The position numbers and the translations under genes are program-made. The notes under the pieces were generated by a model that worked only from the letters and a program-made list of their open reading frames with translations, did not search any database and was not told the origin of the DNA. Of a stretch of DNA of 36,208 nucleotides, positions 1,134 to 31,819 are shown piece by piece. The stretch is from the IMG/VR virus record IMGVR_UViG_3300037785_000033, positions 1 to 36,208 of that record; one strand, 5' to 3'. The stretch comes from a virus. Its lineage: Duplodnaviria > Caudoviricetes. Numbering within the stretch: position 1 is the first letter of the stretch; each line of letters starts with the position of its first letter.

Positions 1134-2375
1134 CTAATAAATCCCCATTTTAGGCCCAGAAGAAACGGGCCGGCGAATCGGGAATTTCTGATTGATAAAA
1201 TAGCCCATGCCATCATTCCAGTCATCGATTGCAGGATGCTCGTTAAATTTCTCAGGGTCGCCTTTCTTGTCGTAGCCCTGAGATTCTAACGAATCCGTGA
1301 GATTAGGACACTTTTCTGTATTCACTCGCATTCTATTATGGGCCAAAAGCCCATTAACTGCATTGATTCTATCGCGTACCGCTGGATTCGCTTCGGGGCA
1401 ATCGATTCGATAGCCGGCCTGCTGGATGATATCTATATCGGATTGCGTAGCATTTGTGCTTCCAGATTTACCGCTTGCATCGGGGAATACTGTAATTTTT
1501 CTGTCTGGCATTTCGTACTTCACCAGGTTATTGCAGAAATCCCGAGTATCGTGGCTCACAAATTCGTCTACCGCGTGAGGCATATTGTTTTCGATTACCC
1601 AAACGCTGGCGCACGTTCCGCCGATATTAAAATCGAGCCCGACATATATGTATTTGTCTTCGGCTGAAAGCGCTCGATCAGTGTGATGCAGCTTTCTATC
1701 GAAAAAGTGATAAACCTTATTTTGGCTGAGTGATACAAACTCGCCATTCAGATACATATCCGCAAGAATCGGGTCGTAATTCGCGCGAATCTGATCGATA
1801 TACCCTGCCGGCAAATATGGATTCGAGGCGGTGGCGGCCTTGATCAGCTCATAGCCTGGCTGTTTTTTCTTAACCCATTTTTCGTAAGTAAAGCCGCTGT
1901 AGCCTTGGTCTGGGGTAGTCACATTTCCGAGAGTGTTCGGACGGCCGCAATTTTGACGATTACGCTCTGATACTTTCCGCCAGACATAAGCGGCCTTTTC
2001 TTTCGCTAATGTATCCAGCTCGTCTACGATTGAGTGAGCCACGGCATAAGCCACAATTCGCTCGGGTCTTTCGTAGCTCCTGAAAATCATATCGCCATAG
2101 CGAGGAATCTCAATTTTATATTGGCTGTGATTTACTCGGTAAGGCAAGCCGAGGCCGGTCAGCATTTCCTCGGCACCAGGCATGGCGCGCAATCTGATCA
2201 GGTCATAAGTGGGCATGTAATACGCCGTATTAATTCCTGGCTGGCCAACCATGGCGATCATTAATCGAGCGATGCCGGCCTGAGATTTTCCAGCTCCAAG
2301 CCCAGCCACCATGGCCGGATTTGTGGCCTCGGAAAAAACGAACTGCTCTTGAGGCTCAGTTAGTGCCAGTTGCAC
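1134..2375 (-). CDS. terL: Terminase large subunit
   Basis: Walker A GLGAGKS, Walker B IVDELD, nuclease motifs GLDFN and DDWNDG, 413 aa. Confidence 0.95.
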   Translation of the reverse strand: MQLALTEPQEQFVFSEATNPAMVAGLGAGKSQAGIARLMIAMVGQPGINTAYYMPTYDLIRLRAMPGAEEMLTGLGLPYRVNHSQYKIEIPRYGDMIFRSYERPERIVAYAVAHSIVDELDTLAKEKAAYVWRKVSERNRQNCGRPNTLGNVTTPDQGYSGFTYEKWVKKKQPGYELIKAATASNPYLPAGYIDQIRANYDPILADMYLNGEFVSLSQNKVYHFFDRKLHHTDRALSAEDKYIYVGLDFNIGGTCASVWVIENNMPHAVDEFVSHDTRDFCNNLVKYEMPDRKITVFPDASGKSGSTNATQSDIDIIQQAGYRIDCPEANPAVRDRINAVNGLLAHNRMRVNTEKCPNLTDSLESQGYDKKGDPEKFNEHPAIDDWNDGMGYFINQKFPIRRPVSSGPKMGIY

Positions 2376-2742
2376 GAACTACCTCGATAACCACGCCTTG
2401 CTTCGGTTCCTCGGAAGCTACTTCTCCTGATTCGCGCCAGCCCATTCTGGTTTTCGTCCAGAACATCGCTGCGCGCACACAATCGGAATACTTCGCGCCT
2501 TTTTTTAAAGCAGCGCCAGAGGCAGCGCCGTAGAGAAAATTGGCCACATTCGCATTCGCTTTAAGCTGGGCCTCGGCTATTTCTGATTTGTAGTGCTTAC
2601 TCAATGTCTTGCGATCTATGCCGATATAATCGGCAATTTCTTCGAGCGGTACGCCATAGGATTTAAGCGCAGAAACTTCGGCCCTTGTTTTTTCGGTGGG
2701 CTCATGCGGTGGCTTTGTGCGCTTTTTCTCGATTTCGGCCAT
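2356..2742 (-). CDS. terS: Terminase small subunit
   Basis: HTH-like EEIADYIGIDRKTLSKHY and AAMFWTKTRMGWRE motif; directly upstream of and overlapping terL. Confidence 0.85.
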   Translation of the reverse strand: MAEIEKKRTKPPHEPTEKTRAEVSALKSYGVPLEEIADYIGIDRKTLSKHYKSEIAEAQLKANANVANFLYGAASGAALKKGAKYSDCVRAAMFWTKTRMGWRESGEVASEEPKQGVVIEVVRATGTN

Positions 2743-3491
2743 TACAGCGCCTCTCGAGTTTTCTCATTTTGGAGCGCGCAGGTCGGAATCGAACCGCCCA
2801 GCTCTGAGGGGTTCTCAGAGTCCTGCCTTTTTACGCGCGTAATCTTTTCGCCTTTGTACATACCGATGCCCATTTTGCTTATTTCACTATACGGCAAAAT
2901 AGGAACAGTAAGCCTTTCCTTTGCGGCTTTGTTGATGAAATAAATATAACGGATTTGGTAGCCTGGCAACTTTTCGCAATCCGATTTTTTGAATCCTTTG
3001 TAAGTTCGATCAATGCGGTTATTGAATGTTTTATCAGCTACCACTTCGCCGCTGGGAGTTCTGAGCATCGTGCTGTTTTTCTTGATTCCGGTCAGCTCGA
3101 ATCCGGCAGCTCTGTAAATTGCACCATCGCCGGACTGGCAGCAATCCGAAAAAGAAAGTACCCATTCTATATTCGGGTAATGCTTTTTAATCAATTTAAA
3201 TGCGATGGCCATCGCTCGACTTTCGCTGTTTTTCGGTAATCGGCTACTAAATGCCATGCGATTCAGCTCGATCATATCGTACCAGGACGTCTTCGCTACA
3301 AGCGGCAGCACCTTTCGGCGGTCTATGGGAGAGCCGAATGACATTGCGCCCTCAAGCTTTCCATTTAAGAACGCACCGAAATGCAGCGTACTATTCGGCA
3401 CCACCTTCCCGCTGTAATGGATTCGGCGCACCACTGCATTCGCCGCCTTGGCTGTAATCGGCTTGATTACAATATCTTTCGCGCTAACCAT
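2742..3491 (-). CDS. mom: Mom-family (GNAT-fold) DNA adenine-modifying enzyme
   Basis: HY...ELNRM...KNSES...SFSD..Q..DGAIYRAAGF.LTG pattern of Mu Mom homologues. Start placed at ATG 3491 after a GAGG RBS. Lies between ParB-N and terS. Confidence 0.8.
   Translation of the reverse strand: MVSAKDIVIKPITAKAANAVVRRIHYSGKVVPNSTLHFGAFLNGKLEGAMSFGSPIDRRKVLPLVAKTSWYDMIELNRMAFSSRLPKNSESRAMAIAFKLIKKHYPNIEWVLSFSDCCQSGDGAIYRAAGFELTGIKKNSTMLRTPSGEVVADKTFNNRIDRTYKGFKKSDCEKLPGYQIRYIYFINKAAKERLTVPILPYSEISKMGIGMYKGEKITRVKRQDSENPSELGGSIPTCALQNEKTREAL
2770..2838 (-). ncRNA. D-armless tRNA-Gly-like element (anticodon ACC) embedded in the mom 3' coding region
   Basis: GCGCGTA-AAAAGGCAGGA-CTCTGA(GAACCCC)TCAGAG-CTG-GGCGG(TTCGATT)CCGACC-TGCGCGC-T-CCA: 7-bp acceptor stem, U73, CCA, canonical T-loop. 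Confidence 0.72.
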
Positions 3492-4113
3492 TTTGCGCCT
3501 CAAGCCACTGCGAGCAGATAAATGCTATCGCGTTGCCATTCGCATTATCATTGATTCCGGTATCTGCCACGGGATTAGATCGTGCCAGCATGAGAGCATC
3601 GTCAATAATTGCCGCCTGATCATCATGCAAAATAAAGGTTTTTTGCTGGAATGGATCTCGATCACCTTCGCTTAATTCCGGCATATCAGTGCCGCTGTCG
3701 CTATCAAATGAAAGCGCCTCGATTTCCTGAGTATCGAAGCCGGTAATTTCCAGATCGAATCCAGACTCCTCGAGCGCATCAAATTCAACGCGTAAAAGTT
3801 CCTCGTCCCAGCCGGCGTCAAGTGCAAGCCTGTTATCGGCAATCACATAAGCGCGCTTTTGGCTTTCGGTTAAATGCTTGGCTTCGATAACTGGCACTAC
3901 ATCGAGGCCCAGCTTCTCCGCTGCCAATAATCGGCCATGGCCGGCCACTACTCCATTCGAGCCGTCTACTACTATCGGATTAAGAAAGCCAAATTCTTTA
4001 ATGCTTGCGGCAATCTTCGCTACTTGAGCGGCGCTATGGGTGCGGCTGTTTCTTGCGTAGGGAATAAGGCTCGATAAATCAGCCTTTTTATAATGGGGAA
4101 AATCTTTTGACAT
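3484..4113 (-). CDS. ParB/Srx N-terminal-domain protein of the type linked to phage DNA modification and terminase genes
   Basis: LIPYARNSRTH...IAASIKEFGFLNPIVVD...VVAGHGRLLAA...AYVIADNRLA. Confidence 0.9.
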   Translation of the reverse strand: MSKDFPHYKKADLSSLIPYARNSRTHSAAQVAKIAASIKEFGFLNPIVVDGSNGVVAGHGRLLAAEKLGLDVVPVIEAKHLTESQKRAYVIADNRLALDAGWDEELLRVEFDALEESGFDLEITGFDTQEIEALSFDSDSGTDMPELSEGDRDPFQQKTFILHDDQAAIIDDALMLARSNPVADTGINDNANGNAIAFICSQWLEAQNG

Positions 4114-4134
4114 ATATCAACACCGTCGACAATA

Positions 4135-4155
4135 AAGCGGGCCACCGACCCGCTT
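4135..4155 (-). terminator. Hairpin, probable intrinsic terminator after the small leftward gene cluster
   Basis: AAGCGGG-TCGGTGG-CCCGCTT followed by TATT on the minus strand; weak U tract. Confidence 0.5.
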
Positions 4156-4181
4156 GAGTATTGATAATATACTTTTTTTGA

Positions 4182-4346
4182 TTATTTAGAAACTGCCCTC
4201 ACCCAACAGCCGGCCAATATTGTTTTGAATAGTTCCGGCCTGTTTTGGTGCCAATTATGCAAAGTTTGCACACTCACACCGGTAAGATCAGATACTTGTT
4301 TCAGGCTTTTGAGCCCGATTTGCTTTGCTTGCTCTGAGGCTGTCAT
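4182..4346 (-). CDS. Small HTH DNA-binding protein (54 aa)
   Basis: Hand translation MTASEQAKQIGLKSLKQVSDLTGVSVQTLHNWHQNRPELFKTILAGCWVRAVSK; HTH pattern; below the ORF-track cutoff. Confidence 0.75.
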   Translation of the reverse strand: MTASEQAKQIGLKSLKQVSDLTGVSVQTLHNWHQNRPELFKTILAGCWVRAVSK

Positions 4347-4349
4347 TGA

Positions 4350-4868
4350 TCAGGCTCCCATGTGCTCATTCCAGATTTTTAAAGCTTCGTCTTCCGGAAG
4401 TGTGTTTAAGATTACCGAGGTATTGCATTCCTTTTTCACGTGATCAAAAAGCCGCTGATCGGGCTTGCCTTTTTTGTATCCCATAATCATTAGTTTTCCA
4501 TCTTTCAGATATACAGCGTTTTTATTTATCTGCCTTTTGAATTCCTTTCTTGAAATGTAATCGCTTACGGAATCATGGCAGAAAATTTCGAGGGCTGTAT
4601 ATTTCGAGTCATCGATCACGTCGATAGATTCGAGCATTTTGTCCCAGCCGGCCTGATCAATAATGTGATGGTCATCGCATCCGCCATGCCCAGCATTTCC
4701 TACCTTGCCGATTTTTTTGCCATCGAAGTAGAGCGCCGCATCGTAGCAATATGTCTCCTCGCTACGTGAAGCGAATTCTTTTATGGCTTTAAGTTCGATT
4801 CGCCCAGCTGCTTTTATTTTGGCTTGCTGGTCTTTCAGGTCTTTTTCGAATTGGTCGAATGAAATCAT
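4350..4868 (-). CDS. Hypothetical protein (172 aa)
   Basis: GAGG RBS, co-oriented cluster, SEETYCYDAALYFDGKKIGKVGNAGHGGCD motif. Confidence 0.75.
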   Translation of the reverse strand: MISFDQFEKDLKDQQAKIKAAGRIELKAIKEFASRSEETYCYDAALYFDGKKIGKVGNAGHGGCDDHHIIDQAGWDKMLESIDVIDDSKYTALEIFCHDSVSDYISRKEFKRQINKNAVYLKDGKLMIMGYKKGKPDQRLFDHVKKECNTSVILNTLPEDEALKIWNEHMGA

Positions 4869-12791: not shown

Positions 12792-13034
12792 ATGCTTTTA
12801 GTAATTGATCAATTAAATCGATATCTAGCCGGCGACGATAACGTGAGCGCCGGCGTAAAATCATGGGCGCGCTTGCACATATATAAACAGGCGCGCGAAA
12901 TTGTGCTTTTGAATAATCCGGCGCGGCAGCGTGAAGCAATAGAAAAAGCTCCGGACAATATTCGAGAGCTGCTTAGAAAAGAGTGCCGAAGATATTTCGA
13001 TATGCACTATAAACAGAGGGGTGTAAATGAATGA
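12792..13034 (+). CDS. Hypothetical protein (80 aa)
   Basis: Tightly packed between ssb and the methyltransferase. Confidence 0.65.
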   Translation: MLLVIDQLNRYLAGDDNVSAGVKSWARLHIYKQAREIVLLNNPARQREAIEKAPDNIRELLRKECRRYFDMHYKQRGVNE

Positions 13035-13759
13035 GCTGGCTTTATTCGCGGGCGCTGGTGGAGGAATACTCGCAGGAAAAATGCTCGGATGGCGAACGGT
13101 CTGCGCCGTTGAATTCGAGCCCTACCCCGCTAGCGTACTTGCACAAAGACAAAATGACGGAATTCTCCCGCCTTTCCCGATCTGGGATGATGTTCGAACC
13201 TTTGACGGCAAGCCGTGGCGAGGAATTGTTGACGTTATATCTGGCGGATTTCCATGCCAGGACATTTCAATTTCGGGACGAGGGGCCGGAATCGCAGGCG
13301 AGCGAAGCGGATTATGGGGAGAAATGTCCCGCATTATTAGCGAAGTACGACCCCGCTACGCATTCATTGAAAACAGCCCAATGCTTGTTAATAGAGGGCT
13401 CGACAGAGTGCTCTGTGATCTTGCCTCGATGGGGTTTAATGCAAAATGGGGAGTTATATCAGCAGCCAGTGTCGGCGCACCCCATAAAAGAGACAGGCTC
13501 TGGATTGTGGCCCACTCCGATACAAACAGACTACAAGGGCGCGCCCAGCCCCGAGAAAGTAAAGGAAAGACAGGCAGCGTCAAAACGGGGGGGTAAGGCT
13601 TCCCGAGGAAGTGGTGAGACGCGGGGAAGTTGGGCCATTGAACCCAGAATGGGTAGAGTGGCTCATGGGGTGGCCGCAAGGGTGGACAGACTTAAAGCCA
13701 TTGGCAACGGACAAGTGCCAGAATGTGCCGCCGAAGCTTGGCGAATCTTAAAGCCGTGA
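13027..13759 (+). pseudogene. C5-cytosine DNA methyltransferase, dual-frame type, frameshifted at about the G7 run (13587-13593)
   Basis: Motifs LFAGAGG, GGFPCQD, IENS and HKRDR in 13027-13596. Motif X (RLKAIGNGQVP) lies one frame over, ending 13759. Motif IX-like LNPEWVEWLMGWP lies in the third frame, ending 13751. Confidence 0.8.
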
Positions 13760-14495: not shown

Positions 14496-15176
14496 ATGAC
14501 CATCGAAATTATAAATGCCGATTGCATGGATTATATGAGCGGCCTGCCCGACAAGGCGTTTGATCTGGCAATCGTCGACCCGCCCTACGGCGTGAAGCAA
14601 GACGGCCACCGAGAAAACAATCGTTCGAAGCTGGCAAAATCAAGAAATTATCATAAAGCCTTATGGGCCCAGCAAAGGCCGGAGCCTGAATACTTTTCCG
14701 AGCTTTTCCGAGTATCAGAAAATCAAATAATATTTGGCGGTAATCACTTGGCCGATCTGATTGGCAAAAAATCGCCTTGCTGGCTTGTCTGGGATAAGCA
14801 CACAACGGGCGGCTTTGCAGATTGCGAGCTTGCCTACACAAGCTTTGACACAGCTGTAAGAAAATTCGATTACCCGTGGAACGGGATGATTCAGGGTTTT
14901 TTCGGCAAAAAATCGATTAACGAAGATAGGATTCACCCCACCCAGAAGCCGGTAGCTTTGTATAAATGGATACTGAGTAATTACGCCAAGGCTGGCGATA
15001 GAATCCTTGATACGCACTTAGGCTCCGGCTCGAGCGCTATTGCGGCCCATTACAGCGGCTTCGATTTTGTAGGGCTAGAGATTGATCAAAATTATTACCA
15101 GGCTGCCATGGCGAGATTCGAGCGCGAGACAGCGCAACTGGATCTGCTCGCGCCGTTTGCTGGTAGCCATTCCTGA
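14496..15176 (+). CDS. N6-adenine/N4-cytosine DNA methyltransferase (beta class)
   Basis: DPPY near the N-terminus, HPTQKP, ILDTHLGSGSS. Confidence 0.95.
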   Translation: MTIEIINADCMDYMSGLPDKAFDLAIVDPPYGVKQDGHRENNRSKLAKSRNYHKALWAQQRPEPEYFSELFRVSENQIIFGGNHLADLIGKKSPCWLVWDKHTTGGFADCELAYTSFDTAVRKFDYPWNGMIQGFFGKKSINEDRIHPTQKPVALYKWILSNYAKAGDRILDTHLGSGSSAIAAHYSGFDFVGLEIDQNYYQAAMARFERETAQLDLLAPFAGSHS

Positions 15177-30577: not shown

Positions 30578-31057
30578 TTAAAGCACTCTTTGAACCGAGC
30601 CCGCTGGATTCAGTAAAGGGCGCAAAATCGCGTTGACGCTCCTGATCGAAAAAGTAGAGGTTCCGTCTTGGAATTCTACTTCGATCACATCAACTTTTTG
30701 ACGCTTAACCGCCTGAGTAATTACCGCCAGCGGGTCATAGCCTCGATCAATCTCGAGGGCCAGAGCGCATACAGCATCTTTCAAAATCTGGGGTATGTCC
30801 GTATTCTCAAGCAAAAAGCCTCTGTAATAAACTTTTTGGCGCGGCCAGGAAAGCGGCTGATCTTCCTCGACAATCTTTCCGAGAAAATTCTTTGATTCGA
30901 TAAAATCCATCGCTTTGTAAATCAGCGTTTTATTATCGTCGGCGGTGATTGTGTAAGCTCTGTCCTCGGCGTACTGAGTAAGCTCGGCCTCTGTAATATA
31001 GGAATTCGCACCGCTTACGATGCTGCCGTCCTCGACAGTAATTTCTGTAATAGCCAT
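30578..31057 (-). CDS. Head-tail adaptor (DnaT-like annotated family)
   Basis: TVEDGS.V.GANSY, QPLSWPR, IP..LK.A.C.LAL. Confidence 0.85.
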   Translation of the reverse strand: MAITEITVEDGSIVSGANSYITEAELTQYAEDRAYTITADDNKTLIYKAMDFIESKNFLGKIVEEDQPLSWPRQKVYYRGFLLENTDIPQILKDAVCALALEIDRGYDPLAVITQAVKRQKVDVIEVEFQDGTSTFSIRSVNAILRPLLNPAGSVQRVL

Positions 31058-31629
31058 TACCAGTTCACCTGCTGAATATTCCCGTTAAAATCCTGCTTCG
31101 CCTCGAATGGGAAAAAGCGAGAAAGCCTTTCAATGTCTCCGCAATCCCAGACCAAGCTGGCAAGCACCTTTTCCGGCACCTGCTTTTTCCGCACTATGAC
31201 GGACACATTATAACCGTATGTTTTTACTTTTGCCTCTGAGCAATCAAATCCAGCGAGAATCATATTGTATAAAAGCAGACCTGCGTTCCAACAAGTTAAA
31301 TGGCCGCCCACGATTTGCTGTTTCATCGGTGGCACTGTTACCGCCAGAATCCCGCCTTTATTCAAATCAGAAAAGCACTTTTGCAGGAAAAGCCCGACAT
31401 TTTTTTGATGCTCGAGCACATGGGACAACCAGAGGCAGTCGAATCGAGATTTGAAATCGGTAGTAAGATAGTCGCCGATTATATCGGCTTCGCCGGTGTA
31501 AGCGATTGTTGTAACTTTCTTGCCGGCCCGCTCAAATTCTCGAGCGTGTGCGCCATTGCCGCAGCCTACATCGAGAACGGTGTCAAAATCCTCGCGCAGC
31601 AATCTCGCCAGGCATTCTTCAGCGGGCAT
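31057..31629 (-). CDS. Class I SAM-dependent methyltransferase (non-DNA type)
   Basis: VLDVGCGNG, FDCLWLSHVLEH, L..GGILAVTVP; start likely ATG 31629. Confidence 0.9.
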   Translation of the reverse strand: MPAEECLARLLREDFDTVLDVGCGNGAHAREFERAGKKVTTIAYTGEADIIGDYLTTDFKSRFDCLWLSHVLEHQKNVGLFLQKCFSDLNKGGILAVTVPPMKQQIVGGHLTCWNAGLLLYNMILAGFDCSEAKVKTYGYNVSVIVRKKQVPEKVLASLVWDCGDIERLSRFFPFEAKQDFNGNIQQVNW

Positions 31630-31819
31630 CTTTCCAGCCGTGAAGCAAAAGCTTTTCCCGCATTGATTCGGGGAAGCTTTCAACGCCTCGGTCTGGCCGG
31701 CGCATTTTTACTTGCTTTTCTTTCGGCTTAGCCTTCGATTTTGTGGATTTTTTAGGCTCTGGGTTTTCTGCCTTTTCCAGATCCACGCCAGCGGTATTCT
31801 CTACACTTTCGGTTGGCAT
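31619..31819 (-). CDS. Small Lys/Glu-rich head-region protein (66 aa)
   Basis: GAGG RBS; overlaps both neighbours. Confidence 0.65.
   Translation of the reverse strand: MPTESVENTAGVDLEKAENPEPKKSTKSKAKPKEKQVKMRRPDRGVESFPESMREKLLLHGWKDAR

Follow-up and report, generated by a model that had tools for sequence, protein, structure and literature searches.

The closest described relative of this locus is phage Mu's Mom enzyme (PF25680, PDB 8bv8; Silva et al. 2026, PMC13219725), which shares its protein family and fold with the protein discussed here and for which Gly-tRNAGly is a proven donor. According to the accessible portion of that paper, Mu Mom moves glycine onto N6-dA from Gly-tRNAGly; the tRNAGly body is required and every E. 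coli isoacceptor is accepted, while the supply of Gly-tRNA is left at scavenging. The original prediction for the present DNA had mentioned a report that Mom uses Gly-tRNA, and this report proved to be real. Mu Mom draws on host tRNAGly, and the Mu-like phages D108 and JD024 do not carry the element described below. The second comparison is with the staphylococcal NP1-NP3 tRNAGly, donors for FmhB, FemA and FemB (PMC7826273). In the available text of that source, EF-Tu sequesters ordinary Gly-tRNA from FmhB, with the first three T-stem pairs setting the affinity. NP1-NP3 keep the GlyRS marks, have a 5-nt anticodon loop and an altered EF-Tu site and serve a GNAT-fold transferase, all of which are found or proposed for the element here. 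They are chromosomal, stand-alone, full cloverleaf molecules with substituted T-stem pairs which feed the cell wall, whereas the element is phage-borne, overlaps and travels with its enzyme gene, has a bulge in place of substitutions, is often D-armless and would feed DNA. By analogy it may work like a non-proteogenic tRNAGly, though it is a member neither of that family nor of the canonical tRNAs.

Ordinary phage tRNA-Gly (RF00005) are clearly related by ancestry, and those members of the present family which keep a D-stem grade into them; they have U8, the D-loop GG, U33, A37 and an unbulged T-stem, and are not found beside mom. The tRNA-like domain of tmRNA has no D-stem and keeps its acceptor and T arm. 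The same is described, in the part of PMC9976931 available, for the D-armless animal mitochondrial tRNA-Ser(GCU). Neither of these shares the element's bacterial-phage setting, its glycine identity or the covarying helix by which its linker pairs with the variable region.

The window (the whole stretch of DNA that was analysed) is a complete phage genome of 36,208 bases with direct terminal repeats, in which DNA contigs of four sequencing runs showed zero variants. The minus strand carries a ParB-like gene, a Mom-family gene, terS and terL in that order:

3484..4113, minus strand: ParB-like gene (profile matches), directly upstream of mom, overlapping the mom start and likely in the same operon
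2742..3503, minus strand: Mom-family GNAT gene (PF25680, phrog_1384 and PDB 8bv8 matches)
2356..2742, minus strand: terminase small subunit gene (terS), its ATG overlapping the mom stop
2375-1134, minus strand: terL, following terS

The phage has several DNA-modification genes, since two DNA methyltransferase-like genes were also seen at 13031-13759 and 14496-15176 (plus strand) and a weaker methyltransferase-like gene at 31057-31683 (minus strand).

The Mom ORF encodes 253 amino acids counted from a TTG, although the ATG at 3491 is a likely start. The protein matched the Pfam Mom profile (E = 2e-50) and the Mu Mom crystal structure both by sequence (E = 1e-24, 31% identity) and by fold (E = 8e-19). 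Six of the eight named key residues of Mu Mom were kept (H58, Y59, R111, S124, D149 and Y159), including all of the catalytic R111, S124 and D149. W48 and R151, the latter essential in Mu Mom, were not kept, and a C was found at the R151 position. By analogy with Mu Mom, the enzyme is predicted to modify adenine in the phage DNA; PADLOC gave zero matches for the protein. R at position 151 was outside the four commonest residues in every element-bearing Mom class. Loss of R151 was considered as the partner of the RNA and rejected as unspecific, as the RNA-less enzymes of A511, PM87 and Alsa_3 also lack R151.

The element makes up codons 222-245 of the Mom-family gene, overlapping RVKRQDSENPSELGGSIPTCALQ of ORF 3503-2742. 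Its parts are as follows:

2770..2838, minus strand: Mom-linked tRNA-Gly-like RNA of the D-armless class, 69 nt, with an encoded CCA (homologue covariation; sole match to model R1 in 36,208 bases)
2832..2838, minus strand: 5' strand of the acceptor stem with G1, C2 and G3, pairing with 2780-2774 (GCGCGUA/UGCGCGC, one U·G; 99.7% paired in homologues, double changes at 4 of 7 pairs)
2826..2827, minus strand: linker GG, equivalents of G18/G19, with predicted elbow contacts to U55 (2792) and C56 (2791)
2823..2825, minus strand: CAG, 5' strand of a 3-bp helix replacing the D-stem, pairing with variable-region CUG at 2801-2799
2802..2820, minus strand: anticodon stem of 7 bp and 5-nt loop with ACC (2812-2810), without U33, with C at 37 and with 32-38 paired
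2781..2798, minus strand: T-arm of 5 bp, A bulged at 2783 between positions 63 and 64, T-loop UUCGAUU at 2793-2787
2770..2773, minus strand: U73 discriminator (2773) and CCA (2772-2770), read from the sequence

All features named in the original prediction were found where it had placed them, with some refinements. The D-arm is absent as claimed, but the purine-rich 11-nt linker said to replace it is not all single-stranded because its CAG is paired; and the anticodon stem, put at 6-7 bp around ACC, has ACC in that position and is better described as 7 bp, since 32-38 pairs and leaves a 5-nt loop. The set of bacterial GlyRS identity elements given in PMC9976931 is complete (G1-C72, C2-G71, U73 and C35/C36) and is accompanied by the CCA. 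The canonical tRNA-Gly set of D-arm, U8, U33, purine 37 and unbulged 5-bp T-stem was not found.

On its own the element is modestly stable (MFE -28.4, z -2.25, with 5 of 200 shuffles as good). Its MFE fold retains the acceptor stem only, and the family fold imposed on this copy scores -27.2. Of the suggested tRNA finders, ARAGORN reported no tRNA in this copy. An Rfam search over 2400-4400 gave no tRNA match at E ≤ 10 and no family at the gathering threshold, with a weak match to the tmRNA T-arm (E = 3.6). The structure descriptor matched only once in the whole genome. On the plus strand, the opposite-strand reading of the anticodon hairpin with a T run (2801-2821) scores as terminator-like, which is probably coincidental.

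We found two classes in the family, D-armless (67-70 nt, including this copy) and D-stem (74-77 nt). In 43 homologues of 69 nt, 96.5% of cells pair and 15 of 21 pairs show double-sided change. Covariation in this alignment was 0.64 against 0.18 when shuffled and at most 0.11 when slid, and none of 500 shuffles reached the score; it should be noted that these 43 rows were chosen for acceptor and T-stem, the unselected test being the prospective 5'-part pattern search given below. Double-sided covariation was also present in 37 copies of 76 nt, where 90.2% of cells pair. Covariation extends to all stems, to the additional helix that stands in for the D-stem and to the elbow contacts 18·55 and 19-56. 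The linker/variable-region helix changes at each of its columns: 14-40 is GC in 23 and CG in 20, 15-39 is AU in 20 and CG in 18, and 16-38 is GC in 20 and UA in 12. RNAalifold recovered the fold de novo, including this 3-bp helix and the 32-38 pair (43/43), and the bulged A was invariant in alignments A3 and A5. On this comparative evidence the element is a real, conserved structured-RNA gene, far beyond chance.

The elbow contacts were read from 69 unique 69-nt elements. The 19-56 position was GC in 54, UA in 7, AU in 3, GU in 1 and AC in 4, and the 18·55 position was AG in 60, GU in 4 and other combinations in 5, with GU in all four copies that have a G there, including this one. The linker GG is thus predicted to behave as G18/G19, and the RNA would be L-shaped without a D-stem, though the elbow swaps may partly reflect only a few independent events that were then inherited. 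RNA classes differ between Mom proteins which are up to 77% identical, and in a FastTree tree (143 of 361 domains), whose sample is biased by RNA-first selection and hand labels and whose deep support is weak, D-armless and D-stem forms interleave. These two observations suggest module exchange or repeated loss of the RNA classes; given the weak support and biased sample we claim no order of events.

To survey from the enzyme to the RNA, we gathered loci of Mom homologues in collections of viral, genome and metagenome sequence, together with 16 phage records that carry annotation. After redundancy was removed, 222 loci reached 40% identity or more, had their C-terminus complete and offered 150 nt of downstream sequence. 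A descriptor specifying G1-C72, 6 of 7 acceptor pairs and a 5-bp T-stem matched 194 of the 222 loci, compared to 16 for an inside-gene control and 12 for shuffled sequence; an opposite-strand control (43/222) was unclean, as the stems are self-complementary and some true copies are antisense. Of the 28 loci that the descriptor missed, a covariance model found copies in 21: 17 at the gene end, of which 11 were sense and 6 antisense, and 4 at 0.7-1.3 kb. A related element therefore lies at the mom gene end in 211 of 222 close homologue loci and within 1.3 kb in another 4, while 7 gave none by descriptor or covariance model.

Among 174 unique elements, C2-G71 was found in 172, G3-C70 in 156, U73 in 168, CCA in 148 and an A bulged between 63 and 64 in 149. 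G was present at position 55 in 139, recalling the TGC/TGT T-loop that NP1-NP3 have instead of TTC in the accessible text of PMC7826273; this genome's copy has TTC. With the anticodon register set by pairing alone and the 41 of 168 rows with fewer than 4 anticodon-stem pairs left out, the anticodon was NCC in 119 of 127 (ACC n = 68, TCC n = 43, CCC n = 6, GCC n = 2) and U33 was present in 36. Viral tRNA-Gly of canonical spacing (n = 52) had ACC in none, U33 in 51 and A37 in all 52.

These counts bear on whether the RNA could be a translational helper, replacing host tRNA-Gly which is drained by Mom or cut by host nucleases. A 5' D-stem class is near canonical (TTC loop in 34 of 43, U8 in 37 of 43, mostly TCC) and ARAGORN calls a few family copies tRNA-Gly, as a helper would predict, but the T-stem bulge occurs in nearly all classes, U33 is present in only 10 of 76 D-armless copies, the 32-38 pair is closed and position 34 varies freely. 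ACC is also favoured although this phage prefers GGC (237 of its 473 Gly codons) over GGT (94). We consider a helper very unlikely.

We also surveyed from the RNA to the enzyme. The T-arm/acceptor pattern alone matches approximately 1,500 IMG/VR viral stretches, an estimate from one narrow signature. Of 120 stretches retrieved, 98 had a same-strand ORF of the Mom family, lying upstream in 73 and downstream in 25; where flanks were long, an adjacent same-strand Mom gene was present at 75 of 80 loci, and all 21 adjacent ORFs picked passed the Pfam Mom profile. In a paired control sharing the T-loop and 3' end, none of 58 unique loci with canonical T-stem spacing was near Mom, compared to 33 of 54 with one extra T-stem nucleotide. 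The prospective pattern covered the 5' part and held no 3' acceptor strand, bulge, U73 or CCA; its complete scan gave 69 matches, 40 of them unique. Chance explains 3 of these 40; the other 37 go on to complete the acceptor stem and to show the bulged A, U73 and CCA. Mom lay upstream in 36 of the 37, the last having a flank of only 115 nt. The link between RNA and Mom is two-way and specific.

Approximately 10 bulged or extra-nucleotide NCC tRNAs from the paired control had no Mom within 1.2 kb, including the intact D-armless copy at L597. At L597 and L358 the element directly follows a ParB-like gene with no mom; the L358 copy forms only 4 of 7 acceptor pairs and lacks a CC anticodon, looking like a copy in decay since mom was lost. 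Five further viral tRNAs (L540, L557, L596, L607 and L608) have a TGT (Thr-type) anticodon loop, U73 and an extra T-stem nucleotide. There is no Mom within 1.2 kb of them and their neighbours match nothing informative in Pfam; they are possibly carriers for another enzyme.

The paired control also bears on a decoy or inhibitor, an uncharged RNA which binds and restrains Mom or soaks up host factors attacking Gly-tRNAGly such as TacT. Such an RNA would keep the same identity marks, and TacT reads U73 and G71 in the available part of PMC9976931. A general decoy, however, has no need to adjoin mom (0/58 vs 33/54), and an inhibitor has no need of the GlyRS anticodon marks, so we regard this as quite unlikely.

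The position of the RNA relative to the reading frame separates selection on RNA from selection on peptide. The T-arm of 3' copies is read in the GGxxPT frame in 105 of 154 translated cases and in other frames in 49 (5 of these rows being mis-picks in the gene body), while 49 more T-arms lie outside the ORF. Elements use each of the three frames, and some lie past the stop, antisense, in tandem or at the 5' end, which argues for selection on the RNA and not the peptide. The prediction that the GGSIPT peptide is a by-product of the T-loop holds, as the peptide shifts frame or vanishes while the pairing stays. The outcome it had named as damaging, homologues keeping the peptide and losing pairing, U73 or CCA, is the reverse of what we observed (U73 in 168/174, CCA in 148/174, pairing kept). 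That the element is a conserved peptide, a decaying relic or an attachment site without RNA function draws on GGxxPT being the commonest frame. Against it stand the double-sided covariation in all helices, the use of all three frames and the T-arms outside ORFs, the RNA-encoded tail (residues 216-253), which AlphaFold predicts to be unstructured (pLDDT < 50), and for an attachment site the lack of an integrase among the 32+3 ORFs scanned. It is already largely refuted and has a negligible chance of being correct. An internal promoter in the G-M-Y-K-G codons was also considered and is not supported: TAT is used in 107 of 157 against 577 of 1,058 elsewhere, but the distance to G1 ranges from 1 to 113 nt. 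A promoter scan of the genome stretch gave no minus-strand promoter.

By position, the 174 unique elements divide into 108 within the ORF, 32 that include the stop and 34 past it. The 140 overlapping the stop region (108+32) would suit a cis-acting processing or regulatory signal, in which mom mRNA is limited through removal of its stop or start codon, or is split from terS, by RNase P cleavage or by charging that depends on glycine; this would tune a toxic enzyme, with no glycyl transfer from the RNA. So would the 5'-type copies: 40 of 41 are in frame with Mom, plausibly since they provide its start codon, and the domain often begins 1-10 nt past the CCA. Neither antisense copies (at 6 of the 28 loci re-examined) nor tandem intergenic copies (L034) nor those at 0.7-1.3 kb can act in cis on mom translation, and C35/C36 are kept though RNase P has no need of them. 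We therefore think a purely cis-acting role unlikely.

The RNA is probably a dedicated, non-translational glycyl donor for the Mom enzyme. The original interpretation of a Mom-dedicated, translation-incompetent RNA is supported by the two-way specific link and the retained identity marks, while the donor function itself, with excision, glycylation, EF-Tu avoidance and use by this clade's Mom, is what we infer. Judged from the alignments, the family has retained exactly the features required for charging and lost those required for decoding, and it goes together with an enzyme family of which the prototype uses up Gly-tRNA. In the proposed mechanism, RNase P would cut the operon transcript before G1 and exonucleases would trim it to the encoded CCA. 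Host GlyRS would then charge the RNA through G1-C72, C2-G71, U73 and C35/C36, the retained elbow holding the L shape. EF-Tu would bind less well because of the A bulged among T-stem pairs 49-65, 50-64 and 51-63, and decoding would be barred by the anticodon loop, closed to 5 nt and lacking U33, so that the Gly-RNA is proposed to stay free for Mom. Mom would transfer the glycine to N6-dA (6-NcmdA), protecting the DNA from restriction just before packaging. For in-ORF copies, one transcript could become either enzyme or donor.

Published work fits parts of this mechanism. The glycine identity set is given as U73, G1-C72, C2-G71, C35 and C36 (PMC9976931, accessible part), and in the available text on a GlyRS crystal the acceptor stem, U73 and anticodon are contacted, elbow contact is unseen and minihelices are charged (PMC9908026). 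The RNase P optimum is described as A(-2)U(-1) in the accessible portion of PMC10731613. Among the 34 elements after the stop, U(-1) was found in 27 and A(-2) in 23, which counts for the donor; U(-1) in only 20 of 163 in-ORF copies and C(-1) in this genome's copy count against it, as do the loss of R151 and W48, the use of host tRNAGly by Mu Mom and the existence of Mom phages without the RNA and of bulged tRNAs with no Mom nearby. The word private, used of the donor in the original prediction, perhaps goes too far: Mu Mom takes each of the three tRNAGly isoacceptors of E. coli, and Mu-like phages are without the RNA.

We searched the openly accessible literature and found no description of Mom-linked tRNA-like RNAs. 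The accessible text of PMC13219725 does not contain the terms 'tRNA-like', 'embedded' or 'overlap', and the available parts of a 2023 preprint and of PMC7824862 do not mention a Mom-linked RNA. There is a real chance that this is a distinct system. In its fullest form it would be an undescribed, widespread two-part system of phages, with an enzyme that modifies DNA and the aminoacyl-carrier RNA belonging to it both encoded by a single stretch of DNA. This carrier would be a natural D-armless tRNA with a rewired core in the bacterial cytoplasm, exchanged between mom lineages and preferred or required by R151-less Moms, with the transcript becoming enzyme or co-substrate; we rate this whole as possible, at somewhat short of even chances. 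A donor role would explain how a late phage enzyme obtains enough Gly-tRNA when EF-Tu holds nearly all of it. ARAGORN, Rfam and record annotation all overlooked this RNA family, which recasts the GGxxPT C-termini of Mom-like proteins as what a tRNA T-arm yields when it is translated. The element would also offer a minimal, naturally occurring RNA that can be charged and is predicted to stay away from ribosomes, with a single bulge as a testable EF-Tu antideterminant.

The RNA is not universal to Mom. Searching ten cultured-phage genomes with model R2, we did not find it in six (the whole genomes of D108, JD024, Alsa_3, PM87, JeffCo and PSullivan, all with Mom-like genes), and the matches in A511 and AsFcp_2 were an ordinary tRNA-Gly only and an ordinary-looking tRNA, respectively. 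In Arthrobacter phage Shade (L045:1177-1250, NC_042015.1 46210-46283), the stop of a distant Mom-like gene falls within an unannotated tRNA-Gly-like gene that is unbulged and lacks an encoded CCA. Melnitz-3 (L660, MZ577098.1 68570-68643) has a weak tRNA-like match approximately 1 kb upstream of a Mom-like gene and inside an annotated CDS, with a TCC loop but a non-glycine A1-U72/G73 acceptor end. A blastn search of the element against cultured phages gave short T-arm matches only, and the Rfam tRNA gathering score (RF00005) was passed by 3 of 11 loci.

Three Bacillota loci (L165:4397-4470, L167:4652-4726 and L170:4540-4613) have their element 0.7-1 kb beyond the mom homologue. Shortly downstream of it comes a long ORF, ParB-like at its start when judged by eye, and the element may serve a second cassette. 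The best bench system that we found is a cultured phage of Psychrobacter, vB_PmaS_Y8A. Between mom and terS, wholly past the mom stop, it has an unannotated tandem pair of D-armless copies with anticodon TCC (L034:1262-1329 and 1334-1402, OQ059336.1).
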